A stretch of DNA of 64,000 nt from Sedimentisphaerales bacterium (lineage in GTDB: Bacteria > Planctomycetota > Phycisphaerae > Sedimentisphaerales > UBA12454): NCBI GenBank assembly GCA_049518795.1, contig JBEKRK010000003.1, positions 99,854 through 163,853 of the forward strand. Reading direction: 5' to 3'. The notes beneath the pieces were generated by a model. The model did not search any database. It was not told the origin of the DNA and saw nothing but the letters and a program-made list of their open reading frames with translations. A program made the translations under genes and the position numbers. This document shows, in pieces, positions 2,834-50,775 of this stretch (the first letter of the stretch is position 1; each line of letters opens with the position of its first letter).

Positions 2834-4686
2834 TCTTTTTTGTATCCCAGGTATATTTCCATTCCGCATTTTCCGCAAAGAAAGTGAACTTCATATTTCC
2901 TGTCGTCTTCATCCTGTAAAATCAGCGGCTCTGCAGGATTTTCAGAATCTGTCTGTCGGCAAAGGTTAAGCTCTTTCCTTAGGCAATACTTTGTTTTCAT
3001 AACCACTTTTCCGGTTAAATCCAAACCTGATTCCGCCGCCGGCTCAATAGTCTCAACACCGTGCCGATGAAAAAAATCCTCTGCCTTTTTATTCAGCACA
3101 TTGCCGGTAAAACACAAATGCTTTTGCGGGTAAGCAACATTGTTTTTTGAAATTTTTAAAGTCGAACGAGGACGATTAAACTCTCGCATTTCCAGTAGTT
3201 GCTTAATAAGCTGTCTTCTGGCATCATTTAATTGAGAAGCAGGCATAAAATACATATCCTGTGTCTCAAATTTCAAATCAGAACACTGGAAAATAGTATT
3301 TCCAAGTCTCGTAAGCTGATTGTGAAAAGCTTCTTTAGCCGTTTCTTTTTTCAGAGCTGGTTTTTTGCCGCTTTTTATTTCCACTTCTGCATTGTTCCCA
3401 TCTTCATCAGTGCCTGTCAATATCAAACCATTTTCTGTTTCTTTTATTATTAAAGAAATGCTGATTTTCCGTTCAGCAGGATTATTAGTGAGCTTATGGA
3501 CGAATTGGGAATCGTAATTTCGATAAATTTTTTGGCCTGCAAAAATATCTTCAATCTTTTGCGGATAAATCTTCTGTCCCTCGACACGGTTGACGGTTGT
3601 TCCAAGCAGATTTTGCTGATGGTCGAAAAAGCAAATCCCATCGCCATTATGTAATTCCTGTCTGCTATCGATTAAAAAGAAGGATTTTTCTGCTTTTTTT
3701 ACAATTCCTATAAATTCGCCAATAGATTTTGGCGTATCAATCGAGCCGAAACCGGATAATTTTCTCATAAGGCCGTAGTCGGTAAATCCGCGATTGAAGG
3801 TTTTTCCCAGATTCGGCTCGAAATTCAATTTTATCGAGCCGGAGGAGCTTTTCTGAAGTTTTTTCTTTTCGAGAATTCTATCAAGTAACTGGCGATAATA
3901 AGCTGTAGCATTGACGACATAAGGAATATCTTTTAATCGGCCTTCAATTTTGAATGCACTAACACCCGCGTCAATCAATTCTTCAAGATATTCGGAAAGA
4001 TTAAGGTCTTTAAGCGACAGCAGGTATCTGTCTTTAACAATGGTTTTGCCGTTTTTATCTTTAAGGCTGTAGAGCCTTCTGCACGGCTGGGCGCATTGTC
4101 CGCGGTTGCCGCTTCGTCCGCCGATAGCATAACTTAATAAGCAAAGTCCGCTTGCTCCAACGCATAATGCGCCGTGAATGAAACATTCCAGTTCGATGGT
4201 AGTTCGGCTGCGGATATGCTGAATCTCTTTAAGCGAAAGTTCTCGCGCCAATATTGCCCGGCTGAAACCAACGCCCTGCAGGAATTTGACTTTTTCGAGC
4301 GTGCAGTTATCCATCTGCGTGCTGGCAATGAGCGGTATAGGCGGCAAATCCAATTCTAATAAGCCGACATCCTGAATAATCAGCCCATCGATTCCTATTT
4401 TATATAGCTGTTTAATTATCTTCTCCGCTATCGGCAGCTCGTCATCATATAACAATATATTGAGCGTAACATAAACTTTTGTGTAATATTGATGTGCGAA
4501 TTCCGTAACTTTCTGAATGTCCTCTATTGTGTTTGACGTTGCCTGGCGGGCGCCGAATCTTTCAGCGCCGATATAAACGGCATCTGCTCCGGCTTGTATT
4601 GCTGTGATTGCTGTTGAGGCGTCTTTGGCGGGCGCTAATAATTCAATCTTTCTGGTCATTGATGTTTGTTGCGGCAGGGGATTCAA
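2830..4686 (-). CDS. Peptidase U32 family protein (YdcP/RlhA-like, long form)
   Basis: The N-terminus KIELLAPAKDASTAITAIQAGADAVYIGAERFGARQ, a TIM-barrel-like core and the Cys-rich segment GNRGQCAQPCR are typical of U32. Its stop overlaps the rplU stop. Confidence 0.85.
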   Translation of the reverse strand: MNPLPQQTSMTRKIELLAPAKDASTAITAIQAGADAVYIGAERFGARQATSNTIEDIQKVTEFAHQYYTKVYVTLNILLYDDELPIAEKIIKQLYKIGIDGLIIQDVGLLELDLPPIPLIASTQMDNCTLEKVKFLQGVGFSRAILARELSLKEIQHIRSRTTIELECFIHGALCVGASGLCLLSYAIGGRSGNRGQCAQPCRRLYSLKDKNGKTIVKDRYLLSLKDLNLSEYLEELIDAGVSAFKIEGRLKDIPYVVNATAYYRQLLDRILEKKKLQKSSSGSIKLNFEPNLGKTFNRGFTDYGLMRKLSGFGSIDTPKSIGEFIGIVKKAEKSFFLIDSRQELHNGDGICFFDHQQNLLGTTVNRVEGQKIYPQKIEDIFAGQKIYRNYDSQFVHKLTNNPAERKISISLIIKETENGLILTGTDEDGNNAEVEIKSGKKPALKKETAKEAFHNQLTRLGNTIFQCSDLKFETQDMYFMPASQLNDARRQLIKQLLEMREFNRPRSTLKISKNNVAYPQKHLCFTGNVLNKKAEDFFHRHGVETIEPAAESGLDLTGKVVMKTKYCLRKELNLCRQTDSENPAEPLILQDEDDRKYEVHFLCGKCGMEIYLGYKKD

Positions 4687-14287: not shown

Positions 14288-14290
14288 AAG

Positions 14291-14452
14291 ATTGAACATT
14301 GAAAATTTAATATTGAAGATTTTGAATTGCGGTTTTGGTGTCGGTATCGGTAACGTCGCGTGTGTCGGTGTAAGTTTGGGTAACGTTACCGATAAACGAA
14401 AACGCCAACGAGACATTACCGTTACCTAAACCGATAAACGAAATACGAAATT
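14291..14452. repeat. Composite spacer: family D (AATATTGAA/AATTTAA words) followed by family E (GGTATCGGTAAC / ACCGATAAACGAAA words)
   Basis: It contains attgaacattgaaaatttaatattgaagattttgaatt, then ggtgtcggtatcggtaacgtcgcg..ggtaacgttaccgataaacgaaa..aaccgataaacgaaatacgaaa. Related E copies lie at 31081-31106, 32340-32367 and 37814-37855. Confidence 0.75.
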
Positions 14453-15835: not shown

Positions 15836-16879
15836 ATGTTTAATGTATATCGAAAAATGTGGGCAGCGGCTGGCATTGTTCTTTGCCTGTTTAGCGCGGT
15901 TTTCGCCTATTCCGATGGAAACGGAACACCGGCCGACCCGTGTCAAATTAGGAATGTTTCCGATTGGCAGCATTTGATGAACACTCCAACAGACTGGAGT
16001 AAATATTTTATTATGACAGCAGACCTGAATCTTCAAGGCGTTACATTAACGCCTGTCGGCAATTCTACTACTACTTTTACCGGTGTCTTTGACGGCGATG
16101 GTTATGTCGTTTACAACGCGATTATAAATACACCCAGCAACACTTATGTCGGCTTGTTCGGCTGTGTCGGCAACGCCGGCCGGATTTCCTATTTAGGCGT
16201 AGAGGACGTTAATATAACCGCGCTTAGTTATGCCGGCGGTCTGGCAGGACGTAATTATGGCGGCATCGCTAAATGTTATGTTACCGGCACTGTTACCACA
16301 AGTGCTACTTATTCGGGCGGCATTGCGGGAAGGAATGATGGAAACATTATTGATTGTTATGCTACAGATTCTGTCAAAGGAAGCAGCGACGTCGGCGGCC
16401 TTGTCGGCAGCAATGGTTCATCTGTCAGCGATGTTAATACCAGCTATTCTACAGGCCTGGTAACCGGTAGCGGTTCGTATGTCGGAGGCCTTGTCGGATA
16501 TAATTACGGCGATGTTATTAATTCCTTCTGGGACGTCAACACTTCCGGCAAATCGACAAGCGCCGGCGGGACTGGAAAGACAACTGCCGAAATGCATGAT
16601 ATAAATACGTTTCTAAATGCCCATTGGGATTTTACGACGCCGATATGGAAAATAAGCAATGGAAATTATCCAAAATTAGATTGGCAGGGAATAACCGGCG
16701 ACTTTGTCAGTCCGGACGGCGTTGGCCCGGAAGACCTTGCCTTTTTTGTTCAGCGCTGGCTGGATACAAACTGCGCTGTAACTAACAATTGCAATGGAAC
16801 AGATTTAAATACAGACGGCACTGTGAACTTCCTTGACTTTGCGCTCTTTGCTAATAACTGGCTTGAAGGAAAAGACTAA
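15836..16879 (+). CDS. Secreted GLUG-motif repeat protein with C-terminal dockerin/EF-hand-like module
   Basis: It has a signal peptide and repeated G-G-L-(A/V)-G-x-N motifs (GGLAGRN, GGIAGRN, GGLVGSN, GGLVGYN). The C-terminus is DLNTDGTVNFLDFALFANNW. An AGGAGG RBS lies 8 nt before the ATG at 15836. Confidence 0.7.
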   Translation: MFNVYRKMWAAAGIVLCLFSAVFAYSDGNGTPADPCQIRNVSDWQHLMNTPTDWSKYFIMTADLNLQGVTLTPVGNSTTTFTGVFDGDGYVVYNAIINTPSNTYVGLFGCVGNAGRISYLGVEDVNITALSYAGGLAGRNYGGIAKCYVTGTVTTSATYSGGIAGRNDGNIIDCYATDSVKGSSDVGGLVGSNGSSVSDVNTSYSTGLVTGSGSYVGGLVGYNYGDVINSFWDVNTSGKSTSAGGTGKTTAEMHDINTFLNAHWDFTTPIWKISNGNYPKLDWQGITGDFVSPDGVGPEDLAFFVQRWLDTNCAVTNNCNGTDLNTDGTVNFLDFALFANNWLEGKD

Positions 16880-16952
16880 AAAATAAAAGAAATAATCGGT
16901 GAAATCCGTGAAATCAGTGGTTTAAAAATAGTTATTATTGAAAGGTCATAAG

Positions 16953-17957: not shown

Positions 17958-18065
17958 ACCGCGGATTACGCGGATTGCGCGGATTTAAAAAGATGTAAAG
18001 AAGTAAGGATGTAAGGAAATAAGGAACTATCTGCGTTAATCTGTGAAATCTGTGGCTGAAAATCG
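17958..18065. repeat. Spacer made of three consecutive stutter arrays (CGCGGATTN x3, GTAAGGAN x4, AATCTGTGN x3)
   Basis: It contains accgcggattacgcggattgcgcggattt, gatgtaaagaagtaaggatgtaaggaaataaggaac and ctgcgttaatctgtgaaatctgtggctgaaaatcg. Confidence 0.8.
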
Positions 18066-18077
18066 AAGGGTGAAAAT

Positions 18078-19070
18078 ATGAAGACCGAAACAAATAATAG
18101 CCGCAAAGACTCTGAATCGCTAAGAACAAGAAGTAATAATTTTAAAACTTCGTGTCTTGGTGTCTTAGTGGCTAAAAAGGGGTTCACTCTCGCCGAGCTT
18201 ATTACCGTAGTCGTGATAATCGCAATTCTGCTGGGGATTTTAATGCCGGCCCTGTCGCAGGTAAAAAAAATAGCGCTTGAAGCCAAACAAAAGGCCCAGA
18301 TTACCAGCATCGAAGTCGGCATAAATATGTATAGAAACGACTTCGGTGCATACCCGCCGTCTCACGGCACGCAGACGGCTACTGAGTCGGTTTACTACTA
18401 CTGCGGCGCCCAGACCCTTACAGAAGCTATGTTCGGCTGGGATTTGCTGGGTGTTCACCAGAACTCAATCTTCAGGGCGGATGGACAAGACAACTCAGGC
18501 AATAATCTTTATCCTCCAGGCCCTAATTCGACAGAACTCAATGCCAGAAAAGAGCCTTATCTTGACAGGACGAATATCGGCGTTTTTACGCCTCGCCAGA
18601 TTTTTAATCAAACCTCTTTTCCAGCTTTTCCCGGCGGTTTGGATGCGGACAGGTATGTTATTTGTGATGTTTTTTCTGCTGCAAGCAGAGAAATCAACGG
18701 AAAATCTTATAAGGTCGGCACACCCGTCCTCTATTTTCAGGCAAACCTTGCTCCTGTAAATACACAAGGGCTTATAATTGCTTCTGCACCGCCTGATAAT
18801 AAGAACAATATTTATAACTATATGGATAATAATTTTCTTATAGAACTGGGAAAAATGACTAACACAACAACAGCTCATCCGCTTTATACGCCTCCCCCTT
18901 ATACAGGTGAACCATTTTATAAATATATTGTTGACCCAATGATTCCTGCAGCGTCCGGAACTGTCGGAATGCCTGTTCGAAAAGATACGTTTCTTTTGAT
19001 TTCAGCGGGCTTCGATGGCCTATACGGCACAAAAGATGATATATGTAATTTTAATCCGAATGTACAGTAA
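18078..19070 (+). CDS. Prepilin-type pseudopilin, enlarged GspG-family paralog 2
   Basis: It has VAKKG|FTLAELITVVVIIAILL and SAGFDGLYGTKDDICNF. The likely true start is GTG 18168 inside a repeat element, giving the short leader MAKKG. ATG 18078 would give an atypical 35-aa leader. Confidence 0.75.
   Translation: MKTETNNSRKDSESLRTRSNNFKTSCLGVLVAKKGFTLAELITVVVIIAILLGILMPALSQVKKIALEAKQKAQITSIEVGINMYRNDFGAYPPSHGTQTATESVYYYCGAQTLTEAMFGWDLLGVHQNSIFRADGQDNSGNNLYPPGPNSTELNARKEPYLDRTNIGVFTPRQIFNQTSFPAFPGGLDADRYVICDVFSAASREINGKSYKVGTPVLYFQANLAPVNTQGLIIASAPPDNKNNIYNYMDNNFLIELGKMTNTTTAHPLYTPPPYTGEPFYKYIVDPMIPAASGTVGMPVRKDTFLLISAGFDGLYGTKDDICNFNPNVQ
18148..18175. repeat. Family A right-arm half copy overlapping the 5' end of a pseudopilin gene
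   Basis: The sequence is cttcgtgtcttggtgtcttagtggctaa. GTG at 18168 is in frame with the prepilin motif. Confidence 0.8.
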
Positions 19071-19079
19071 AAAGTAAAT

Positions 19080-19328
19080 GAAAATACGAAGCACGAAATC
19101 CGAAATTCGAAACAATATCAAATGTTCAAAATACAAAGGTTCGAAACAGTTTTGAATTTTGGTAATTCGTATTTTGAATTTGCTTGCCCTGTGAGATGCC
19201 GCTTCGGCTATCTCTCTGGGGTTTCGGATTTCGATACTTGTCCGCCACAGCCTCGGCGACGGCGGATTCGAATTTCGAATTTAAAAACAAATTTGTGTTT
19301 ATCTGTGTTTATTTGTGGCTAATTTACG
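19080..19328. repeat. Composite spacer: family F + P + Q + TGTGTTTA array
   Basis: The F copy (agcacgaaatccgaaattcgaaacaa..tcaaatgttcaaaa) recurs at 49754-49815. The P copy is at 19187-19221 and the Q copy at 19237-19266. These are followed by atttgtgtttatctgtgtttatttgtggctaa. Confidence 0.75.
19187..19221. repeat. Family P bulged hairpin repeat
   Basis: The sequence is ccctgtgagatgcc-gctt-cggctatctctctgggg. Confidence 0.7.
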
Positions 19329-19336
19329 GCGGAATT

Positions 19337-19906
19337 ATGTTGAAGATGACAAACAAAAACGGCCTGACTATCGTGGAGATTCTGGTCGCTGTTACGATAA
19401 TAGCGCTCCTTGCCGCAGGACTGTATTCCGTCAGCAATTATCTTGAAAAACAAGCCAAAATAAAACTTACCGAATCGACAATCGAAGCCCTTTCTGCCGC
19501 CATCGAGCAGTATCGCGATTTTAACGGACATTTTCCTTTTGTGACTGGCACAGGTTCTTATGGTCTAAGTCAGCTTCAAACAACTCTTAATGGAACCGTC
19601 GTAAATCCCACTGATTACAATGACATATATGCTTCAAGTGATGCTTTGTATTATATTTTAAATCAAGTCCCCGCAAGCAAGAAGATTATCGATAACCTGA
19701 ACCGTTCGCTGGTTACAAATAAAGACTATAAAGGCACAGAATATTTTATTCTTATCAACGGTGTGAATTATCCATTGATACATATTATTGACCCGTGGAA
19801 GTGTCCGTTGAGATATACGTATAAAGATAGCGATAATTTTCCGTTAATAGAGTCAACCGGGCCGGACAGGGATTTTAATACGCCTGACGATATCAGCAGC
19901 AGATGA
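19337..19906 (+). CDS. gspG: GspG-like major pseudopilin
   Basis: It has MLKMTNKNG|LTIVEILVAVTIIALL, then IIDPWKCPLRYTY (the GspG DPWG-x-PY motif) and a GPDRDFNTPDDI loop. The ORF-track extension back to 19184 consists of repeats. Confidence 0.8.
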   Translation: MLKMTNKNGLTIVEILVAVTIIALLAAGLYSVSNYLEKQAKIKLTESTIEALSAAIEQYRDFNGHFPFVTGTGSYGLSQLQTTLNGTVVNPTDYNDIYASSDALYYILNQVPASKKIIDNLNRSLVTNKDYKGTEYFILINGVNYPLIHIIDPWKCPLRYTYKDSDNFPLIESTGPDRDFNTPDDISSR

Positions 19907-19910
19907 TAAA

Positions 19911-20013
19911 TAATTTAAAATTTAATATTGAAGATTGAAAATTTAAAATATTTAAAACCGTGTAAATCCGTGTTAATCCGTGTCTCAAAAAGTCAGTGTT
20001 AGTCAGTGTCGAT
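19911..20013. repeat. Composite spacer: family D + AATCCGTGT array + AGTCAGTGT array
   Basis: It contains ccgtgtaaatccgtgttaatccgtgtctc and agtcagtgttagtcagtgtc. The same composite occurs in reverse orientation at 42556-42600. Confidence 0.75.
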
Positions 20014-20895
20014 ATGAAAAGAGCTTTTTCCATTATTGAATTGCTTGTTGTGATGGCGGTAATCGCGTTGCTTGTAGTGATTGCGATACCTGCGATAAAC
20101 GCGATGCAGAAGTCTTTCGATTCGACCGGCTCAGAATCGATGATTAGCACAGCCCTTGCCACCGCAAGAACATTAGCAATAAAAAACAACCATTACACCG
20201 GCGTCAGATTCCAAAAAGCATGGTATAAACCTTCTTCTGACCCTGCTGTTCCGCCTTACGATAACCTCAGCAAGGCCGACCAGTATATGATTTTTATAAC
20301 TTACAACAGCGATAAAACAGGTCTGGATTGCGGTTTTATTGCTATGGATGGTTATAAACCTATAAAACTTCCGGAAAATATCTGTGTAATAGATAAAATT
20401 GTAAGAAATTATACTGTTAGCGTGACTCCAAGAACCTGTGGTAATCCAATAGTTGAAACAGGTTTAAGCCCAAGCGATCTTGATGATGTTACAGCAAATC
20501 TCGACCCTGCTACTGAACCCTATCTTGAACATGACAACATACACATCAGGGATACTTCAACATTTTCGATTGTTTTTTCTCCCTCGGGAAAACTTGTTAC
20601 ATTGGAAGTTAGATGCAGAAATAATGATAAACAAAGCAGGCCCGCATTAAATGCAGCTTCCGGTTCCGATGATAAGGTTTTTAATAGTTATTATGATATT
20701 GCTACCGGCAACGGTCAGTTTTTGCAGGATGATTATGACGATTTCGGAGTGGGCGTAGAGAATAGTCGAACAAATTTTGTTATATATGACCGGGGAAAAT
20801 TTGAAAAGATGACGACAAGCACGCAGAAAATGGATTATCTAACTGGACTAAAGGCAATGAATATAAATCCCTATACCGGCGAGATTATTAAATAG
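20014..20895 (+). CDS. Minor pseudopilin (GspH-like by position)
   Basis: It starts MKRA|FSIIELLVVMAVIALL with a prepilin motif. It occupies the gene-order position of GspH. I moved the start to the ATG at 20014. Confidence 0.65.
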   Translation: MKRAFSIIELLVVMAVIALLVVIAIPAINAMQKSFDSTGSESMISTALATARTLAIKNNHYTGVRFQKAWYKPSSDPAVPPYDNLSKADQYMIFITYNSDKTGLDCGFIAMDGYKPIKLPENICVIDKIVRNYTVSVTPRTCGNPIVETGLSPSDLDDVTANLDPATEPYLEHDNIHIRDTSTFSIVFSPSGKLVTLEVRCRNNDKQSRPALNAASGSDDKVFNSYYDIATGNGQFLQDDYDDFGVGVENSRTNFVIYDRGKFEKMTTSTQKMDYLTGLKAMNINPYTGEIIK

Positions 20896-20927
20896 AATGT
20901 AGAATATAGAACATAGAATTTAGAATA
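20893..20927. repeat. Five tandem heptamers TAGAAYN starting with the gspH-like stop codon
   Basis: The units are tagaatg tagaata tagaaca tagaatt tagaata. The 7-nt period places TAG in all three frames. Confidence 0.85.
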
Positions 20928-20945
20928 AATTAAAATAAAAATTTT

Positions 20946-20973
20946 CTTTGTGTCTTGGTGTCTTAGTGGCTAA
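20946..20973. repeat. Family A right-arm half copy containing the start codon of the gspI-like gene
   Basis: The sequence is ctttgtgtcttggtgtcttagtggctaa, with TTG at 20948 and GTG at 20966. Confidence 0.8.
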
Positions 20974-21667
20974 GAAATTTAAACAAAGCGGTTTTTCTCT
21001 TACCGAGGTCTTGATGGCCGCAGGCATTCTTTCTATCGGTATGATGCTGGTAGCCACGATGTTTCCGGTCGCGATTTACCTGACAAGCATATCGGTCGAA
21101 AGGACAATGGCCGCTATTGTTGCTGATGAAGCATTCGCGAAAATTCAGCTTTACGGCATTGGCACGCCTATTCTCAATATCGGCGATTATAACGATATCC
21201 CCGGCCTGACAATTGACCCCTGCGAATTTTCGTATAATCCGACACAAGCTCTAACAAATCCCCAATATTACTGGTCAGCCGTTTACAGAAAATTGAGCCC
21301 GGTGGACCCGAATTATCAGATGACGGTCTTTGTCGCCAGAAAAACAAATCCGGGACTGACGTATCCCAACCCTGGCGGTCCGTCTTATGATAGACCAAAA
21401 CTTATTATGATTCAGAGTATAGTGCAACCTGATCCGAATTTCCTGGTCGTTACGGTTTATCCGCAATATGTTAATCCGCCGACAGCGATACTCGATAATG
21501 CTACCGGTAAAATATACCGCGTTATTGACAGGCAGAATACTAAGGTGAAACTTGACAGAGGCTGGGAAGATTCGACCGGCCCAGCTAATATTTGGCTTAT
21601 TCCTCCGCCCGTAACCGGCGGACGAAATGCGGATATCGAAGTTTATCAGAGAATAATAAGATTTTAA
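20948..21667 (+). CDS. Minor pseudopilin (GspI/PilV-like by position)
   Basis: It has KQSG|FSLTEVLMAAGILSIG. There is no in-frame ATG upstream. The start must be TTG 20948 or GTG 20966, and both lie inside a repeat element. Confidence 0.65.
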   Translation: MCLGVLVAKKFKQSGFSLTEVLMAAGILSIGMMLVATMFPVAIYLTSISVERTMAAIVADEAFAKIQLYGIGTPILNIGDYNDIPGLTIDPCEFSYNPTQALTNPQYYWSAVYRKLSPVDPNYQMTVFVARKTNPGLTYPNPGGPSYDRPKLIMIQSIVQPDPNFLVVTVYPQYVNPPTAILDNATGKIYRVIDRQNTKVKLDRGWEDSTGPANIWLIPPPVTGGRNADIEVYQRIIRF

Positions 21668-21670
21668 GGA

Positions 21671-21743
21671 TAGCCACAAAGGCACAAAGACACGAATAAA
21701 AATAATATATAAAAAACTTAGTGCCTTGGTGTCTTAGTGGCTA
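21671..21743. repeat. Family A inverted stutter element (TAGCCAC...GTGGCTA), full copy
   Basis: The left arm is tagccacaaaggcacaaagacacgaa, the centre is AT-rich (20 nt) and the right arm is cttagtgccttggtgtcttagtggcta. The arms are built from the 8-nt word CTTNGTGN. Confidence 0.85.
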
Positions 21744-21749
21744 ATTGAT

Positions 21750-22496
21750 ATGAAAAAAGGCTTTACTATTATCGAATTATTAGTTGCGATGGGTTTGTTT
21801 GCGGCCGTCATCGCGGCGGCGGGTATGATTTTTAATTATTCAATCGAGTCCCAGAGAACCGCCGCGGCCACTGCCGAGATTATGCGAACCCTCCGCGCAA
21901 TTACCGACCAGATTGATATTGATTTCCAGAGTCTGCGAACAGATGGATATTTAATTTTATATTCAGAGCAGGTCGGCAGCGATAATTATGATGCCCTTTA
22001 CTATTTCAGCACAGGCGATTATCAGTCGTGGGCAGATACTTCGACAAGATCCAACATTGCCCGAATCTTTTTAGGACACAGTCAATCGACTTATACCGGC
22101 AAAATATTGCCCGGCGATTTGGCAAGAGATATTCTTCTTTTAGTTCCGGGTTATACAGGAACGGGCAATGATGTGAAAAATATAAGTTTTGCTGAGTGTC
22201 AGGCAGCTATTACTAATCTCGAAAATCCTAATACCGCGTTTTTTACTACTGGCAGGCCGCCCGCTGGCTCCACGAATATCGGAAGTCTTTTTGCTCAAAA
22301 AGTTGGCAGTTTTAGAATTGAATGGACTAATGGAATCAGCGGAAATCGAATAAATTGGTCTTCGACAGCGATTACCTGCACGCCGACAAGTTCGAACTGG
22401 CCGAAGGCTCTTAAATTTACGTTCACGCTTTATGATTCCAAAAGGATTCTCAAAGGCGGCAGAACGTTTGAACATATAGTTTATATAGGACCGTAG
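21750..22496 (+). CDS. Minor pseudopilin (GspJ/PulJ-like)
   Basis: It has MKKG|FTIIELLVAMGLFAAV followed by a long N-terminal helix. It sits before the GspK-like gene. Its stop TAG is the first triplet of a repeat element. Confidence 0.65.
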   Translation: MKKGFTIIELLVAMGLFAAVIAAAGMIFNYSIESQRTAAATAEIMRTLRAITDQIDIDFQSLRTDGYLILYSEQVGSDNYDALYYFSTGDYQSWADTSTRSNIARIFLGHSQSTYTGKILPGDLARDILLLVPGYTGTGNDVKNISFAECQAAITNLENPNTAFFTTGRPPAGSTNIGSLFAQKVGSFRIEWTNGISGNRINWSSTAITCTPTSSNWPKALKFTFTLYDSKRILKGGRTFEHIVYIGP

Positions 22497-22569
22497 CCAC
22501 AAAGACACAAAGGCACTAAGAAAAGGTGATATATATTAAAAAACTTCGTGTCTTGGTGCCTTCGTGGCG
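22494..22569. repeat. Family A element, full copy; its first TAG is the stop of the gspJ-like gene
   Basis: The sequence is tagccacaaagacacaaaggcactaag / aaaaggtgatatatattaaaaaa / cttcgtgtcttggtgccttcgtggcg. Confidence 0.85.
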
Positions 22570-22591
22570 CCCTTTAAAGGAGGGCAGAAAA

Positions 22592-25195
22592 ATGATAAAA
22601 AAGATGATAAAACAATTTGAATATGACAGGCTGGGTTCTGCGTTAATTATGACCATTGTCCTGACGATAATGCTCGCTGTAATAGCCGTGATGTTTGTGG
22701 CTATTGCAAGGATGGATAGCGCAGCCACAAGCAATATTGCCGATAATAAAACCCTCGATTTAGCTGCCAAGTCAATTATAGAGCTTATCAATGGCCAACT
22801 TGTTAGCGATACACCGCCAATTGGAGGCACTTATTATGATTATCCAGATTCTCAGCATCCCTGGCTCGCAAGCAATGAGCCGTATCAAGACCCGACAGTT
22901 CCAACTAAATATTATTGGCGGCAAATAAGCGATGTGACGAATTATCTGCATCAACACTTCTATCTTACAAATAATATAGATACTGATTATCCAGGCGTCA
23001 GAGATGTAATATTAGATTATCCAGTTATAACTCTTGATGGCAGCGGTAACTTACAGGACAATTTGGCCGATGCTGATGGCGATGGTATCCTTGATTCAAA
23101 ATGGATTGAACTTACGGATTTGCGAACTTCAAAAGGAAAGAAAATTTACGCCGCCGTCAGGGTAATTGACAATAGCGGAATGGTCAATGTCAATACCGCG
23201 TATCAGTTTGACCCTACCAGCGGCAGTCAAGCGAGAATTGACGGTTCAACCCAAATGCAGATAAATCTCAAAGGTCTCTTGAAGTCCAGCGATGATATTG
23301 GTAGCTTGCAAGCTGCTCGTTTAGGCTCTGCGACACTCCCCCAAAGCTGGGCTGATTATCAAAAAAAGATTATCTGGCAATACGGCCTGCCTGCGGACGG
23401 CAATTATCGTCCCTTTGATATTTCCGATGAGCTTGAATTAAGATACAGATATTGTATTGACAGTAAATTTGAAAGCCGCTTGGAAAAGGTGCTGCCTCAA
23501 ACTTCTGATGCAGGCATAAACGCCGGAAGCCTTTATGATGCAGCTGGTAGCGGCCGGGGACTTGAAGAATGGCAGGCCAGAATTACAGAAACCAACAGCA
23601 TAGGCATTCGCAGGCATTATTTGACAACTCTGAATCTTGACAGGATTATTGCCCCTGACGGCAATAAAATGACCAATATAAATGATGCTAATGTGAATGA
23701 ATTATACAATGCCATTCTCAATAGCGGCGTTGACGCTAATACGGCCGCCCAAATGGCGGTCAATATAATTGATTATCGGGATAGCGATTCGAATGTTACT
23801 GCTTTTAATGTGGGTTCTACCACTTATTATGGTTTCGAGACCCCCTGCATTTACATTTCCGAATTAGCTTACAATAAAAGTGGCAGCAATATGTCTTACG
23901 CAATCGAACTTTATAAGCCTTATTCCGGTGATTTAGATCCTGTTGGATGGAAACTTCATAGTGACCTCACAGGCAATTATTATAATATTAACTGGTCGGG
24001 GACAAAGCAGTTTTATGTTATAAAGTGGGAGAGCCCCGGAGTTTCATTTGTTATAGATCCTTGCGCTTCAACCCAAGATGGAGGTGCTCCGGGTTCTGGC
24101 ATTTTCAGTGCCGGCACTACGATTTCATTAATACGCACAGTTAAGGTTGGAGCTGCTGATATTGATATTACAGTTGATTCTTTTATTGTTCCTGTTGGTT
24201 GGTCGCCTTCAGGCAATGGTATTTATAGTCTTCAAAGAGATATTGCATCTGCAAAATGTATAAGGTGGTCGGGGATGGCGGGTATTCGGGGTTTGTGGGG
24301 CGGGATGGTCAGTGGTTCTCAAACTCTGGGATTGATTAATACCGCTATACCTCCTGATGATGGCAAATATATCCAAGCTCATCCAAAAAATGCCGCCTTC
24401 ACAAATATCGGTGAGATTGGAATGATTTTCCGCAAACCGGCTTATTATCCTTATATAGGTAGCAGCGCACCTGCCGGTACAATTGGTTATGATAGCACTG
24501 CTGATGAGGAATCTGAAGTTTTTGTCGATTTGTCCCAAACGACTTATCAGCAGATTTTTAAATATCTTACCGTTATCGACCCTTATAACGCTGTTGATCG
24601 GTTAAATCCAAATCCGGCTTATTTAAATGAAACAAGAATTAAAGGCAGGATAAATATCAACACCGCCCCTGCGTATGTGTTGGCTCAATTGCCGTGGGTT
24701 TCGCTAAGAAATGACCCCGTCGGCTACAACAATGCCAATCTTGCCAATGCGATAGTTGCTTATAGAGATAAACAAAACCTTTCTCCTTCCGGCCCTGATT
24801 ATAGAAGTTCAGACCCTTGTGGTTTTAGAACTATTGGCCAGCTAATGAATGTCCGTTACCCGCCTCAGGATTACCGGATTGATTATTATAGTCGTGTTTT
24901 AACTGGAGACCAGCCGGGATTTCCTGATTTAAGCGGCGGCGATGGCGCTCCGGATGATTATGAAGAGCGGGATTTAATTTTCACCCGAATCAGCGACCTT
25001 GTAACGGTTCGCAGCGATGTCTTTACCGCTTATATTTTAGTGCGTGTCTGCACAAATGTTAAAAGTGATGGGACAATTGAAGGCCCGCAGAAAAGATACA
25101 TCGCAATTCTCGACAGAAGCCAAGTGGGAGACTCTCGATTTCCGGGTAATAAGGTTATAATAAGAGCCTTTCAGGTTGTGCCGGAAGCACGTTAG
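22592..25195 (+). CDS. Giant GspK-like minor pseudopilin (about 867 aa)
   Basis: It has the non-canonical hydrophobic N-terminus LGSALIMTIVLTIMLAVIAVMFVAIA. The C-terminal motif RIKGRININTAPAYVLAQLPWVS is GspK-type. DADGDGILD is Ca-site-like. An AAAGGAGGG RBS lies before the ATG at 22592. Confidence 0.7.
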   Translation: MIKKMIKQFEYDRLGSALIMTIVLTIMLAVIAVMFVAIARMDSAATSNIADNKTLDLAAKSIIELINGQLVSDTPPIGGTYYDYPDSQHPWLASNEPYQDPTVPTKYYWRQISDVTNYLHQHFYLTNNIDTDYPGVRDVILDYPVITLDGSGNLQDNLADADGDGILDSKWIELTDLRTSKGKKIYAAVRVIDNSGMVNVNTAYQFDPTSGSQARIDGSTQMQINLKGLLKSSDDIGSLQAARLGSATLPQSWADYQKKIIWQYGLPADGNYRPFDISDELELRYRYCIDSKFESRLEKVLPQTSDAGINAGSLYDAAGSGRGLEEWQARITETNSIGIRRHYLTTLNLDRIIAPDGNKMTNINDANVNELYNAILNSGVDANTAAQMAVNIIDYRDSDSNVTAFNVGSTTYYGFETPCIYISELAYNKSGSNMSYAIELYKPYSGDLDPVGWKLHSDLTGNYYNINWSGTKQFYVIKWESPGVSFVIDPCASTQDGGAPGSGIFSAGTTISLIRTVKVGAADIDITVDSFIVPVGWSPSGNGIYSLQRDIASAKCIRWSGMAGIRGLWGGMVSGSQTLGLINTAIPPDDGKYIQAHPKNAAFTNIGEIGMIFRKPAYYPYIGSSAPAGTIGYDSTADEESEVFVDLSQTTYQQIFKYLTVIDPYNAVDRLNPNPAYLNETRIKGRININTAPAYVLAQLPWVSLRNDPVGYNNANLANAIVAYRDKQNLSPSGPDYRSSDPCGFRTIGQLMNVRYPPQDYRIDYYSRVLTGDQPGFPDLSGGDGAPDDYEERDLIFTRISDLVTVRSDVFTAYILVRVCTNVKSDGTIEGPQKRYIAILDRSQVGDSRFPGNKVIIRAFQVVPEAR

Positions 25196-25294
25196 CCACG
25201 AAGGCACAAAGACACGAAATATATAATTAAAAAACTTAGTGCCTTGGCTTGTCCCGCCATAGCCTTTTGGCGACGGCGGATGTCTTAGTGGCTA
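25193..25294. repeat. Family A element, full copy, filling the whole spacer between two convergent genes; both terminal TAGs are the stop codons
   Basis: The left arm spans 25193-25218. The right arm (25235-25247 plus 25281-25295) is interrupted by a 33-nt insert. TAG at 25193 ends the gspK-like gene. The reverse complement of CTA at 25292-25294 ends the minus-strand gene. Confidence 0.85.
25248..25280. mobile_element. 33-nt family Q mini-element precisely inserted into a family A arm
   Basis: Removing cttgtcccgccatagccttttggcgacggcgga restores cttagtgccttggtgtcttagtggctaa. That sequence is identical to the right arm at 21717-21744. Related copies lie at 19237-19266 and 41354-41386 (reverse complement), with shorter forms at 32983-33008 and 33063-33082. 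Confidence 0.6.
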
Positions 25295-25633
25295 ATTTTT
25301 GAGCAGTAGTTGATGCACTATCGCGGCTATAAGCCAGGCCGCGAATGAAAAAGCCACTGTCGGCAGGATTGAAATCTGCTTTTTAAAGCACAAAAAAGCG
25401 ACAATAAAGAAAAATACGGTGGGAATTATTCCCCATAAAACGCCTCTTGTGAAATCGGTCATCAGTTTAAAATCGCCGGGCCTGTCAGACCACAGCCAAA
25501 GAAGGACTATCAGCGTTGTTATCGGCGCTGTCGCTATCAGGCCCGCAAGAGCAGGCGCCTTTTTGCCGATTTGGGAGCAGAAAGTAATTATCGCAATCGT
25601 TATCAAAAGCTTGATAAGAAACTTTGTATCCAT
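25292..25633 (-). CDS. Small 4-TM membrane protein, unknown function
   Basis: It is 113 aa with four hydrophobic helices. Its stop codon is the terminal TAG of the repeat element at 25193-25294. Confidence 0.5.
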   Translation of the reverse strand: MDTKFLIKLLITIAIITFCSQIGKKAPALAGLIATAPITTLIVLLWLWSDRPGDFKLMTDFTRGVLWGIIPTVFFFIVAFLCFKKQISILPTVAFSFAAWLIAAIVHQLLLKN

Positions 25634-29173: not shown

Positions 29174-29226
29174 ATGTTCTTTATTCGATGTTCAATGTTC
29201 GACTGTTCGATATTGGATGTTCAATT
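29174..29226. repeat. TGTTCRA stutter array
   Basis: The sequence is atgttctttattcgatgttcaatgttcgactgttcgatattggatgttcaatt. Confidence 0.7.
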
Positions 29227-29284
29227 AAATTTTTTTATGATAAATTTTTTCTCTGCATTCTCGGCATTCTCTGTGGTGAACGTC

Positions 29285-31809: not shown

Positions 31810-32049
31810 TGTTTTCCCAGAAGACTATCTCATCGGGGTGTTTTGTTTCAACAAAGGCTGATTTTCAGCCTGTGGACAAAGCAAAACGGCTGGCACAGAA
31901 ATCGCAATTTCGAGCATAGCCTTTGCTTTGAACACAAATTCCCGATTTATCGGGATTGTTGAAACAAACAGTGTTAATCCGTGTCTAAAAATAATCAATG
32001 AAATCAGCGCAATCTGCGATAAAACTTTGTGCCTTCGTGTCGAGGTTTA

Positions 32050-32092
32050 CCCCGTGAGATGTCCGCCCGCAGGCGAGACTATCTCATCGGGG
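32050..32092. repeat. Family P hairpin repeat
   Basis: The sequence is ccccgtgagatgtc-cgcccgcaggc-gagactatctcatcgggg. Confidence 0.75.
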
Positions 32093-32373
32093 TGGCTATT
32101 TTTCAAGCTGGACAAGCTGGGGGTTCAATGTCCAATATTGGTCGAAAGCGCGCAGGAAAAAACTTGCGCGCTTGAAAAAAATAATAAAATTTTTCTCCTT
32201 ATCCCGCAACGACTTACAAAATCGCATTGGTCGATTTTTGGTCGAAATTCGGCCAAAACGCGCAAGTTTTCGCCTATATATGGAGGGACATATATATTGA
32301 AAATTGAATATTTAAGATTGAAAATTTCGAGAATTATTACTGATAACCGATAACTGATAACGGAAAAATTACT

Positions 32374-37153: not shown

Positions 37154-37732
37154 ATGTGGAATATTTTTGAATATCCGTTTGCCGGGATTGGGGCGGCGAT
37201 TATCGTTTTTATCGCCTTGTGGATTTTCCGAGCGGTTTGCCCCGATAAAAAACGCTGGTGGCAACTATTTATACCACTTCTAATAGTTATCGCTGCCGTC
37301 GCGGTCGCGTATTTTGTCGAAACCGATAAAGAAAAAATCCAAGGTGCAATAAACAAAGGAATCAAGGCTTTCGAACAACAAAAAATCGAGCCTATAAAAG
37401 AAATTGTCGCTGACGATTATACAGACCCATACCACAGCTCAAAAGACATAATCATCGCATACTGCCAGGCCCTCTTCCAAACGGCAACCGTCGAAAAAAT
37501 AAGCATATTCAGCCGACAAATTGAAATCCAGGACGATAAAGCGACTTTTACAGTTGAAGGACTTGTAAAATTTACCGAACAAAGCGAAATTGCAAAGATG
37601 GGCAAGCCGTTTATGATTGTCAAGGCGAGATTTTATTTCCGTAAGACCATTCAAAAAAAATGGTTAATAAACAGCAGCGAAATTCTGGAGCTTGACAGAC
37701 AAGCAGTAAACTGGGGGCAAATGCGCAATTAA
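37154..37732 (+). CDS. Two-TM membrane protein with small soluble C-terminal domain, unknown function
   Basis: It has two N-terminal hydrophobic helices. No family was recognised. Confidence 0.45.
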   Translation: MWNIFEYPFAGIGAAIIVFIALWIFRAVCPDKKRWWQLFIPLLIVIAAVAVAYFVETDKEKIQGAINKGIKAFEQQKIEPIKEIVADDYTDPYHSSKDIIIAYCQALFQTATVEKISIFSRQIEIQDDKATFTVEGLVKFTEQSEIAKMGKPFMIVKARFYFRKTIQKKWLINSSEILELDRQAVNWGQMRN

Positions 37733-37737
37733 AATTC

Positions 37738-37765
37738 TTAGCCACTAAGACACGAAGACACAAAG
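37738..37765. repeat. Family A left-arm half copy
   Basis: The sequence is ttagccactaagacacgaagacacaaag. Its TAG (37739-37741) lies in frame two codons after the TAA of the 37154 gene. Confidence 0.75.
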
Positions 37766-38076
37766 AAAAGAAGTAAGGAGATAAGGAGGCAGGGAAGTGA
37801 GGATATGTGTTATGGTGTGGGTATCGGTAACGTCACGATATCGGTAAAGGTAAAAATAGTTAAACGGTTTTAACGAACCCTGCCAAGGTATTGGCAGGGC
37901 TAACCCCCCGCCCACGGGTGGCAGGGCTAAACAGAACCATAAAATTTTATTGTTGAGTTTGAAAAGAAAAAGAGTAGAATTTTAGTAAAGCAACGAGGAG
38001 TTGCAACATAGAGACTGTAATAAAAAATAGATGATTACCTCTACCTATATTCAAAAAGAAAGAGAATAATACTGCC

Positions 38077-42108: not shown

Positions 42109-42144
42109 TTAACCGAACATCTTCGTTATTTCACGTATAATTTA

Positions 42145-42253
42145 AAGGAAGTAAAGAGGTAAAGAGGCAAGGAAGTAAGGAAATAACTACTCCCTAATGG
42201 TCGCGGCTGGGACGTCCTTATTTCCTTAATTCTTTACTTCCTTACATCCTTTT
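42145..42253. repeat. Inverted pair of GTAAGGAA-type stutter arrays in a divergent promoter region
   Basis: The left array aaggaagtaaagaggtaaagaggcaaggaagtaaggaaataac (42145-42187) faces gtccttatttccttaattctttacttccttacatcctttt (42214-42253). Confidence 0.75.
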
Positions 42254-48333: not shown

Positions 48334-48449
48334 TTAGCCACCAAGACACCCCGATGAGATAGTCAAAGACATCTCACAGGGTAAACTCCGGCATGAAGTT
48401 TTTTAATTATATATATTATTCTTAGTGTCTTAGCGCCTTTGTGGCTATC
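48334..48449. repeat. Family A element (left arm interrupted by a family P hairpin) in the uvrA/nfi divergent spacer
   Basis: It consists of ttagccaccaagacac (48334-48349), the P copy 48349-48381, an AT-rich centre and cttagtgtcttagcgcctttgtggcta (48421-48447). Confidence 0.7.
48349..48381. repeat. Family P hairpin repeat (opposite orientation)
   Basis: The sequence is ccccgatgagatagtc-aaa-gacatctcacaggg. Confidence 0.75.
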
Positions 48450-49618: not shown

Positions 49619-49666
49619 GCCGAGCGGGCTTGCGCATCAGATAGTAACGAAATTGAAAAATGAAAA
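49619..49666 (+). pseudogene. Degenerate second copy of the nfi 3' end
   Basis: The segment gccgagcgggcttgcgcatcagatagtaacgaaattgaaaa matches 49184-49230 of nfi at about 36 of 45 positions. It would encode PSGLAHQIVTKLK, compared with PSRLAHQIVTRLK in nfi. Confidence 0.45.
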
Positions 49667-49691
49667 TTTATTTTTTAGCCACAGAGACCAT

Positions 49692-49719
49692 CCACCTTCG
49701 CACATTCGTGCTACGGTGG
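49692..49719. repeat. Family R hairpin, second copy, sitting inside a degenerate family A arm
   Basis: ccaccttcgcacattcgtgctacggtgg is flanked by tagccacagagac and aggcagagaacacagag. Confidence 0.6.
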
Positions 49720-49964
49720 ACAGGCAGAGAACACAGAGATATATAAAAAATCCAAAGCACTAAATCCGAAATACGAAACAAATTCAAAATTACAATTTTC
49801 AAATGTTCAAAACGGATAAAATTTATGGCCAAATGTTTTTGGGGTTCCGCACAATCTGGGTCACAGATTTGACCATAAAATCGATTCCGGCTGCAAAACC
49901 GGAAAAATCCTAATGCCTGAAATCAGCAGTATTTATCGGCCATTACTGGAATTATTCGTTAGCA

Positions 49965-50736: not shown

Positions 50737-50775
50737 TCCACAATTTTGACTTTTAAATTTTGATTTTTAAATTTC

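Follow-up and report, generated by a model that had tools for sequence, protein, structure and literature searches.

What holds a short inverted repeat exactly at the ends of genes, so closely that its outermost bases read as their stop and start codons? The question is raised by a 64-kb stretch of a Sedimentisphaerales (Phycisphaerae) bacterium contig of 439,716 bp (JBEKRK010000003.1; the whole stretch is hereafter called the window), in which elements of the form TAGCCAC...GTGGCTA lie at gene boundaries in and around an operon with gspI-, gspJ- and gspK-like genes. Six open reading frames (ORFs) around the elements match Pfam N_methyl, and these genes form a pseudopilin operon. A preliminary description had taken the elements for codon donors of a geometry not described before. 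Our preferred reading, in which we place a little better than even confidence, is that they are short non-coding imperfect-palindrome repeats of the bacterial kind that includes miniature inverted-repeat transposable elements (MITEs) and repetitive extragenic palindromes (REPs), and that codon supply is a by-product, because insertion and tight packing place the element ends on codons.

The repeat and its copies

About ten copies of an imperfect palindromic repeat of about 74 bases were observed within the window. The heptamer TAGCCAC occurs 15 times where 4.1 occurrences were expected (standard deviation 1.7; largest shuffle 9), and the two-word arm pattern CACNAAGNCACNAAG, allowing one mismatch at most, occurs 19 times against an expectation of 0.16. 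A separately assembled Logan contig (L229; such numbers, e.g. L014 and L227, denote individual loci retrieved for comparison) is 100% identical to window positions 21712-25433, and because of this match the elements are not assembly artefacts; they are real. Folded as RNA, the full copies at 21671, 22494, 25193 and 48335 reached -25.2, -24.9, -38.3 and -31.3 kcal/mol, with z-scores of -5.8, -2.7, -4.8 and -3.3, respectively.

Each arm consists of a GC clamp, GCCAC on the left and GTGGC on the right, and of two or three 8-nt words (NAAGNCAC) in tandem after it, a build that we call a stutter arm. In Planctomycetota the clamp is usually lengthened to TAGCCAC and GTGGCTA. The inverted arms measure 27 nt and enclose a centre of about 20 nt with 83% A+T, and the median element length is 74 nt. 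Among 112 metagenome hairpins (see below), the positions left free in the search pattern still read AAG-N-CAC-N-AAG at 78-98%, followed by AT-rich sequence. The CAC and AAG triplets are near-invariant, the first free position of the word (N4) may be any base, and the second (N8) is a purine in 93% of cases, with a pyrimidine on the partner arm.

The preliminary description had listed three full copies and a number of half or degenerate ones. Two of the full hairpins, 21671-21743 and 25193-25294, stand as listed, the third ends at 22566, and several of the half copies had to be re-read. What was called a half copy at 18148-18175 is really the right arm of a complete degenerate copy (18098-18174), and those at 32025 and 48334 are copies (32025-32098 and 48335-48447) broken by a second, nested GC-rich hairpin. 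The element at 49676, listed as a degenerate copy of the same repeat, is built of different words (CACAGAGA); the complementary counterpart of these words, in the form of TCTCTGTG...GTGGCT arms, is present in two relatives of the operon (L230 and L232). A third kind of nested hairpin breaks the 25193 copy, which does occupy the whole spacer between two convergent genes, as had been claimed.

Stop and start codons at element ends

As first proposed, three genes really do end on the terminal TAG, namely the gspJ-like and gspK-like genes and the minus-strand gene 25292-25633. TAG 22494 ends ORF 21750-22496, in agreement with the NCBI/Prodigal protein P0001 (248 aa), and in L232 the gspJ-like orthologue, too, ends on the TAG of a left arm (TAGCCAC). 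TAG 25193 ends the 867-aa gene 22593-25195, with the same end in the Prodigal call on L229. Two further TAGs lie in frame behind a TAA, one codon after that at 21665 (TAG 21671) and two after that at 37730 (TAG 37739). The resulting count of five in frame out of five is true of the window and is not general, as seen in two censuses of element ends that have an upstream co-directional ORF of 100 or more codons (100 ends in the first, 109 in the second, 209 together). Stops upstream of the element were distributed over the three phases as 26/22/25 in the first census and 23/33/28 in the second, and the upstream ORF read into the element at 11 and 9 ends, respectively. The TAG itself was the stop at 32 of the 209 ends (15%; 16 of 100 and 16 of 109), an offset about five times commoner than the neighbouring offsets in the two censuses. 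Apart from this class, in which the TAG is the stop, TAG phase is random, and it is by chance that the TAGs 21671 and 37739 follow a TAA in frame; in L227 and L228 the sequence at the orthologue of the 21671 copy is TAA GGA GCCAC, with no TAG.

A phase census had been named beforehand as the result that could refute the codon proposal, through random phase and a lack of enrichment at gene boundaries. Phase came out at about one third, and enrichment at gene boundaries was strong, with stops clustering 0-14 nt ahead of the element, which supports the placement of the elements on gene boundaries. On the downstream side, the phase of the GTG relative to the following ORF was 56/54/54 and 37/33/38 in the two censuses, and the first downstream ATG usually lay 10-40 nt past the element. 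Codon supply as a general, in-phase property has to be given up: 85% of the ends supply no codon, and the TAG and GTG phases are random.

Three start codons had also been attributed to the elements, and only that of the gspI-like prepilin withstood comparison with orthologues. Its GTG, within GTGGCTAA, is the only start available to the gene and is conserved: all four orthologues (window, L227, L228 and L232) have it in frame, and in L232 it is also the start chosen by the gene caller. The start reads GTG GCT AAR in the window, L232 and L228 and GTG GCG in L227, and three of the four have no alternative in-frame start before the G|FSLTE motif. For gene 18078, GTG 18168 is not needed as the prepilin start, since ATG 18078 gives a product beginning MKTE like the orthologues in L228 and L227, with leaders MKTEKNKG|FTLAEL and MKTKKIKG|FTLPEI, respectively. 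The window leader consists of MKTETNN, 26 extra residues and KKG|FTLAEL (an alignment insertion of 81 columns), and the extra leader DNA is the complete element 18098-18174, the left arm of which is degenerate. Judged from these alignments, ATG 18078 is evidently the conserved start and the element an in-frame insertion in the leader. The proposed 5' extension of uvrA is not conserved; the uvrA start is ATG 48323 (minus strand), outside the element, as in L155, a locus that retains only the uvrA-proximal arm of the 48335 element.

In L232, another palindrome (ACCCCCACACCAATTTATATTGTGGGCGGG) breaks the leader region (15-261) of the gene orthologous to 18078, and L231 has this palindrome too (3422-3500). 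The leader of this prepilin seems to be a recurrent landing site.

Occupied and empty sites

Relatives of the pseudopilin operon were compared at five distinct loci with spacer data (L225, L227, L228, L230 and L232; 50-66% protein identity); in a sixth, L231, the key spacers hold masked gaps. Three loci, L224, L225 and L226, are more than 99.8% identical to one another with zero indels, and so are uninformative on strain-level polymorphism. Presence and absence at orthologous sites were observed nonetheless in the wider comparison. The leader element of the window is absent from L227 and L228, and its length of 77 nt minus one TA gives 75 nt, or 25 codons; only on this count is the reading frame kept. 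One phage-lineage site is filled in L014 and empty in L184, L219 and L169, and a different site is filled in L108, where the element is bounded by TA...TA, and empty in L278, which has a single TA. Further filled and empty pairs are L171/L178 and L261/L300. The TA is self-complementary and may merely extend the stem.

In L014 (8743-8831) the hairpin split an ATGA stop/start overlap, and the filled allele has gained an AGGAG ribosome-binding site and a second ATGAA along with the hairpin, both genes being intact. Insertion of the 25193 copy into an overlapping TTAA stop pair was considered and rejected: L227 and L228 give spacers of 40-55 nt at this place, and synteny breaks in L227.

The surroundings of the elements are rich in A+T (flanks 80-90%). 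TA precedes 10 of the 11 arm ends in the window, and the base directly before TAGCCAC is T in 63%, A in 25% and G in 9% of cases. Under the reading that we prefer, copies would arise by inserting into AT-rich sites at gene ends, the target being probably a TA that is duplicated, a step that we infer. They would survive only where no gene is harmed, which would leave them packed against stop and start codons. The entering end would read TA followed by G, so that an element landing on the TA of a stop codon, be it TAA or TAG, would leave an in-frame TAG; the leaving end, GTG-GCT-AA, has been adopted by one gene family as M-A-K. Resident copies would be transcribed with the operon and most likely persist as deliberately imperfect intercistronic stem-loops, where we infer both an RNA role and selection against perfect pairing.

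Several observations weigh against a MITE or REP origin. Many viral copies have the TA at one end or at neither, and the copies of L227 and L228 at the gspI-gspJ spacer lack the left TA. A stutter-armed hairpin is present in nearly every spacer of the pseudopilin operon, in the window and in the five relatives, and its words differ, being GTTATCAG and CTGATAAC in L225, AAATCCGAA-type in L227, AAAATGAAAA-type in L228 and TCTCTGTG in L230 and L232; many of the relatives' spacer hairpins end in GTGGCT. Such different-word hairpins in each spacer are compatible also with growth in place by slippage. The copies in the window all differ at their N positions, keep the triplet blocks invariant and give no sign of a recent master copy. 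At the gspI-gspJ spacer, the window shares a GCCAC hairpin with L227 and L228 (87% column identity), its differences confined to the N positions and the loop, and the flanking protein is 57-58% identical; triplet blocks conserved beside a diverged protein look like purifying selection and not like decaying selfish DNA. The search for a transposase bounded by the arms gave none: five pairs of left and right arms lie 400-4000 nt apart in about 230 loci, and the two of these that were inspected enclose a phage terminase-like ORF and an HNH-AP2 ORF, no transposase.

Some arms do enclose genes of other kinds. A 253-aa ORF with HNH-like and AP2-like motifs (by-eye reading) occupies the loop between GCCAC-family left and right arms in L108 (1382-2186). 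In some relatives, a 23S_rRNA_IVP (PF05635) gene of 99-115 aa separates the gspI-like gene from the gspJ-like one; it has GTTATCAG and CTGATAAC stutter words on its flanks and looks like a small gene carried in the hairpin centre.

Genomic context and distribution

The family was traced with a TA-flanked arm pattern in viral contigs (48 stretches) and in genomes (at least 119 stretches), with a generic arm pattern in viral contigs (85 stretches), and with the full TA...TA hairpin pattern in metagenomes (at least 119 stretches, of which 112 were non-redundant among the matches listed). About 280 chance occurrences of a 16-base pattern are expected in 596 Gb by an arithmetic estimate, and because of this we counted lone arms with neither a third word nor a partner as no evidence; a clear partner arm was present in 36 of the first 119 genome stretches, among the matches listed. 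Full hairpins were observed in metagenome-assembled genomes (MAGs) labelled Planctomycetota, Bacteroidota, Acidobacteriota, Desulfobacterota/Thermodesulfobacteriota, Nitrospinota, WOR-3 and Chloroflexota, at least seven phyla, and also in the isolates Flavobacterium soyae SCIV07 and Fulvivirgaceae JP3-4. Many viral contigs carry hairpins, and some have one in nearly every spacer.

A different arrangement of the same arm was observed in the isolate Flavobacterium stagni WWJ-16 (L109, minus strand from 2947 and 5631), where the TAGCCAC arms follow one another on the same strand at intervals of about 100 nt, with CTTAAACC and CTTGAAAC words between them, and are not simple hairpins.

The class of spacer was examined in two sets. 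In the first, of mixed source, the elements fell into 31 tandem, 9 divergent and 4 convergent spacers against a background of 379, 95 and 115, so that convergent spacers were under-represented; in the 112 listed metagenome hairpins there were 41 tandem, 13 convergent and 8 divergent spacers against 201, 68 and 43, which matches the background. Terminators or promoters would be expected to show another pattern. A sigma-70 promoter in the AT-rich centre was also considered and rejected, as a consensus scan gave no consistent site.

Searches for a described relative were negative. The Rfam 15 covariance models gave 0 matches at the gathering threshold across the window, and at E <= 5 the interval 18000-25400 gave only the unrelated CRISPR-DR37 (E = 4.7). 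Distant blastn with the consensus hairpin against 50,697 phage GenBank records gave no match, and a search for six arm strings through the full text of 8 million papers found a single match, an unrelated primer for fish environmental DNA. On the strength of the missing Rfam match and the missing literature match, the family itself appears to be undescribed.

Pairing between the arms

If the stem were kept by selection for base pairing, changes at its variable positions should be compensated on the partner arm. No compensatory Watson-Crick covariation was found at the variable stem positions of 156 non-redundant three-word hairpins; Watson-Crick pairs were present at about half the shuffled expectation, with 22 observed against 41.8 expected, 40 against 66.5, 22 against 42.6, 30 against 65.9 and 24 against 45.8 at the five variable levels (p <= 0.0002). 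At N8 the juxtapositions in excess were G.T (90 against 64 expected) and A.C (94 against 61), and both N8 levels are swapped between G.T and A.C from the window to L227. Pairing was also weaker between partner arms than between non-partner arms from one and the same locus (-28.5 against -31.3 kcal/mol, p = 0.005). Watson-Crick pairing with the partner arm is thus avoided at every fourth base, and this avoidance is statistically robust.

No strand bias was observed at N8, with 13 G.U and 16 A.C in the sense strand, and no bias of loop orientation, sense-strand loops being A-rich in 29 cases and T-rich in 23. On these two counts, a hairpin that acts specifically as sense-strand RNA was rejected.

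Alternative explanations

The alternative that survives best, which we hold to be possible and on balance doubtful, is that the elements are host-selected intercistronic RNA stem-loops that punctuate mRNA (as a processing site, decay barrier or cistron insulator), grown by word slippage and not mobile. It would account for the hairpins of differing word sets in nearly every operon spacer of the window and its five relatives, for the blocks kept in orthologous copies, for partner arms that are always of complementary word families, and for the excess and the swapping of G.T and A.C at N8. It is opposed by the lack of any sense-strand bias in G.U and A.C or in the loops, by partner arms that pair worse than random pairs from the same locus, and by a set of 112 hairpins in which no spacer class is enriched. 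The same words in at least seven phyla, together with discrete insertions into a coding leader and an ATGA overlap, are not easily produced by local slippage.

A more far-reaching proposal, which we consider unlikely, is that the (CACNAAGN)n / (NCTTNGTG)n arms act in cis across phyla and are recognised by a conserved factor of host or phage, or that they form a helix that needs a non-Watson-Crick (wobble-type) juxtaposition at every fourth position. They would then serve as boundary marks between genes in the transcripts of Planctomycetota, Bacteroidota, Acidobacteriota, Desulfobacterota and the phages of these groups, and would represent a new class of gene punctuation that Rfam lacks, and not selfish DNA. 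The enforced mismatches and the conservation across phyla are the points worth pursuing here; if a shared factor or a required helix geometry proved true, operon expression in phyla that have been little studied would have a widespread element open to testing.

It is very improbable that the arms belong to the gene that they bracket, either as a panhandle in which the right arm in the 5' untranslated region pairs with the left arm in the 3' untranslated region after cleavage in the AU-rich centre, or as the terminal inverted repeats of a gene cassette. In the window, arms that bracket a gene are Watson-Crick at 8 of 15 variable positions and the arms of single hairpins at 0 of 15, and across the family N8 is Watson-Crick in 53% and 46% of the arm pairs that span a gene, the corresponding figures inside hairpins being 25% and 12%. 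Measured against non-adjacent arms of the same locus, however, the difference is not significant (p = 0.22 and 0.06; -32.5 against -31.3 kcal/mol, p = 0.24), and the true signal is the depletion within hairpins.

Still less credit is due to bidirectional Rho-independent terminators. Stable hairpins directly after stops, one of them filling a convergent spacer, are what such terminators would look like, but the elements have no U-tract, a terminator scan gave no sites at them, most copies lie between co-directional genes of one operon, and convergent spacers (4 of 44 and 13 of 62, against a background of 20-22%) are not enriched. The view of the elements as dedicated donors of stop and start codons, set down in phase for that end, has next to nothing left in its favour beyond the three genuine TAG stops and one conserved GTG start of the window and the preferred TAG-as-stop offset, the two censuses having largely refuted it through random TAG and GTG phases and the great majority of ends that give no codon, as do the TAG-less orthologues of the 21671 copy and the loss of two of the three start claims.

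Relation to known repeat families and significance

The preliminary description had regarded codon-donating geometry as undescribed. TAG-supplying REP termini and in-frame MITE copies were in fact already published (PMC3733652, PMC2229807), with PMC2759123 as a further precedent. GTAG REP termini often supply the TAG stop to flanking ORFs, and some REPs are themselves located within an ORF (Di Nocera et al. 2013, PMC3733652). Correia/NEMIS, ERIC and RUP elements have terminal inverted repeats, target duplications and 5'-TA-3' termini, and in-frame intragenic copies of RPE and RU-1 have been described (Delihas 2008, PMC2229807).

The closest resemblance of the window family is to the TA-ended MITEs, i.e. 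Correia/NEMIS of Neisseria, ERIC/IRU/RU-1 of enterobacteria and RUP of S. pneumoniae, the last mobilised by IS630-Spn1 (PMC2229807). Like these it is short (<300 bp) and non-coding, has terminal inverted repeats and a long imperfect stem-loop with TA at both ends, is mostly intergenic with an occasional in-frame intragenic copy, and occurs in many copies per genome and in both orientations. Unlike these, its arms are tandem 8-nt words with free fourth positions, its copies are not near-identical, no cognate transposase was found in the retrieved loci, and it spans several phyla and viral contigs, TA ends being typical of the Planctomycetota copies only. With the REP/REPIN elements of the GTAG superfamily (PMC3733652) it shares extragenic palindromes packed against ORFs, and it differs in having no conserved GTAG or CGTC tag (in the window only the 22494 copy reads GTAG, in keeping with the rarity of G before TAGCCAC noted above) and in its arms of 27 nt against 10-15 nt.

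The palindrome at 18098-18174, in frame in a conserved gene and probably translated, recalls RPE (Ogata et al. 2000, as reviewed in PMC2229807), whereas it is the single such case observed here and unrelated in sequence, and RPEs are 105-146 bp long and belong to one genus. The short tandem-word arrays with a period of 7-9 nt resemble the cyanobacterial STRR heptamers and 6-9-nt intergenic repeats (PMC4692102), from which the window family is set apart by inverted pairs around an AT-rich centre and a GC clamp anchored at a gene boundary. We found no described family with the 8-nt word build, the triplet invariance combined with Watson-Crick avoidance, and the spread across phyla and phages.

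Two practical consequences follow for genomes that carry the repeat. In Sedimentisphaerales and related MAGs, gene callers will misplace starts and stops where an ORF end falls within a repeat; in L232 Prodigal shifted the 18078 orthologue to a start further downstream, and in L228 it truncated the gspI-like orthologue. Assemblies also break inside the repeats, with 30 of the 112 listed metagenome copies adjoining a contig end or having no called gene on one side, and contig L229 itself ends within the 21671 copy.

REP and MITE families are normally confined to one genus, and the presence of one arm sequence in at least seven phyla and in viral contigs contrasts with this habit. If horizontal spread were true, the family would be a useful marker of phage-host gene flow.

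Other repeats and feature coordinates

The features described here, and those nested in or lying beside the elements, are collected in Table 1.

Table 1. Positions of the elements, of their arm pairs and of accompanying repeats and genes (window coordinates unless a locus is named).
Feature	Position	Strand	Context
Complete degenerate copy TAGCCGC...GTGGCTA, 77 nt	18098..18174	+	in frame within leader-peptide codons of prepilin gene 18078-19070
Right-arm-like array of ATTTGTGTTT words, ends GTGGCTA	19291..19321	+	closes a 250-nt composite in which several stutter and nested hairpins are joined
Solo right arm CTTTGTGTCTTGGTGTCTTAGTGGCTA	20946..20972	+	GTG 20966 starts gspI-like prepilin 20966-21667
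Full copy	21671..21743	no strand	gspI-like/gspJ-like spacer; TAG one codon past true TAA stop
Full copy	22494..22566	no strand	TAG 22494 is the stop of gspJ-like gene 21750-22496
Full copy filling convergent spacer	25193..25294	no strand	TAG stops 22593-25195 (+) and 25292-25633 (-)
Nested 33-nt GC hairpin	25248-25280		inside the 25193 copy
Right arm CTTTGTGCCTTCGTGTC ... GGTGGCTA	32025..32098	+	split by nested CCCCGTGAGAT...ATCTCATCGGGG hairpin
Solo left arm	37739..37765	+	two codons past TAA of gene 37154-37732; AAGGAGAT-type stutter array next
Full copy	48335..48447	no strand	divergent spacer ahead of uvrA; from 48350 a nested CCCGATGAGAT... hairpin
TAGCCAC clamp, then CACAGAGA-type words and nested GC hairpin	49676..49738	+	related word family, not the same
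Gene-bracketing arm pairs	20970/21672, 21741/22495, 22568/25194
23S_rRNA_IVP gene	L224 1097-1396, L225 2915-3214, L226 131-430, L231 3074-3421
Tandem word arrays	14288-14451, 16870-16919, 17960-18054, 19076-19325, 19912-19983, 20892-20927, 29174-29271, 32296-32367, 37764-37854, 49646-49812, 50742-50774
Second small repeat	~19187-19224, 32046-32090, 48350-48392; L232 ~22-60
Third small repeat	~19233-19266, 25248-25280, 49690-49725; L232 spacer 1720-1832

Most spacers of the window are tandem word arrays with a period of 6-10 nt, as detected with Tandem Repeats Finder (TRF), of many word families and often in inverted pairs, the GCCAC family being just one of them. A separate stutter hairpin at 42143-42251, with five AAGGAAGT / ACTTCCTT words per arm, is the most stable of the window (-46.1 kcal/mol, z-score -6.6). 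A second small repeat, CCC(C)NGTGAGAT...ATCTC...GGGG, forms a GC-rich hairpin of about 35-45 nt that is inserted in the arms or loops of stutter hairpins and is also present in L232. The third small repeat, the GC-rich hairpin GTCC(C)GCC...GGCGACGGCGGA, is likewise nested in stutter hairpins, and in the 25193-25294 copy it cuts the right arm between CTTGG and TGTCTT.

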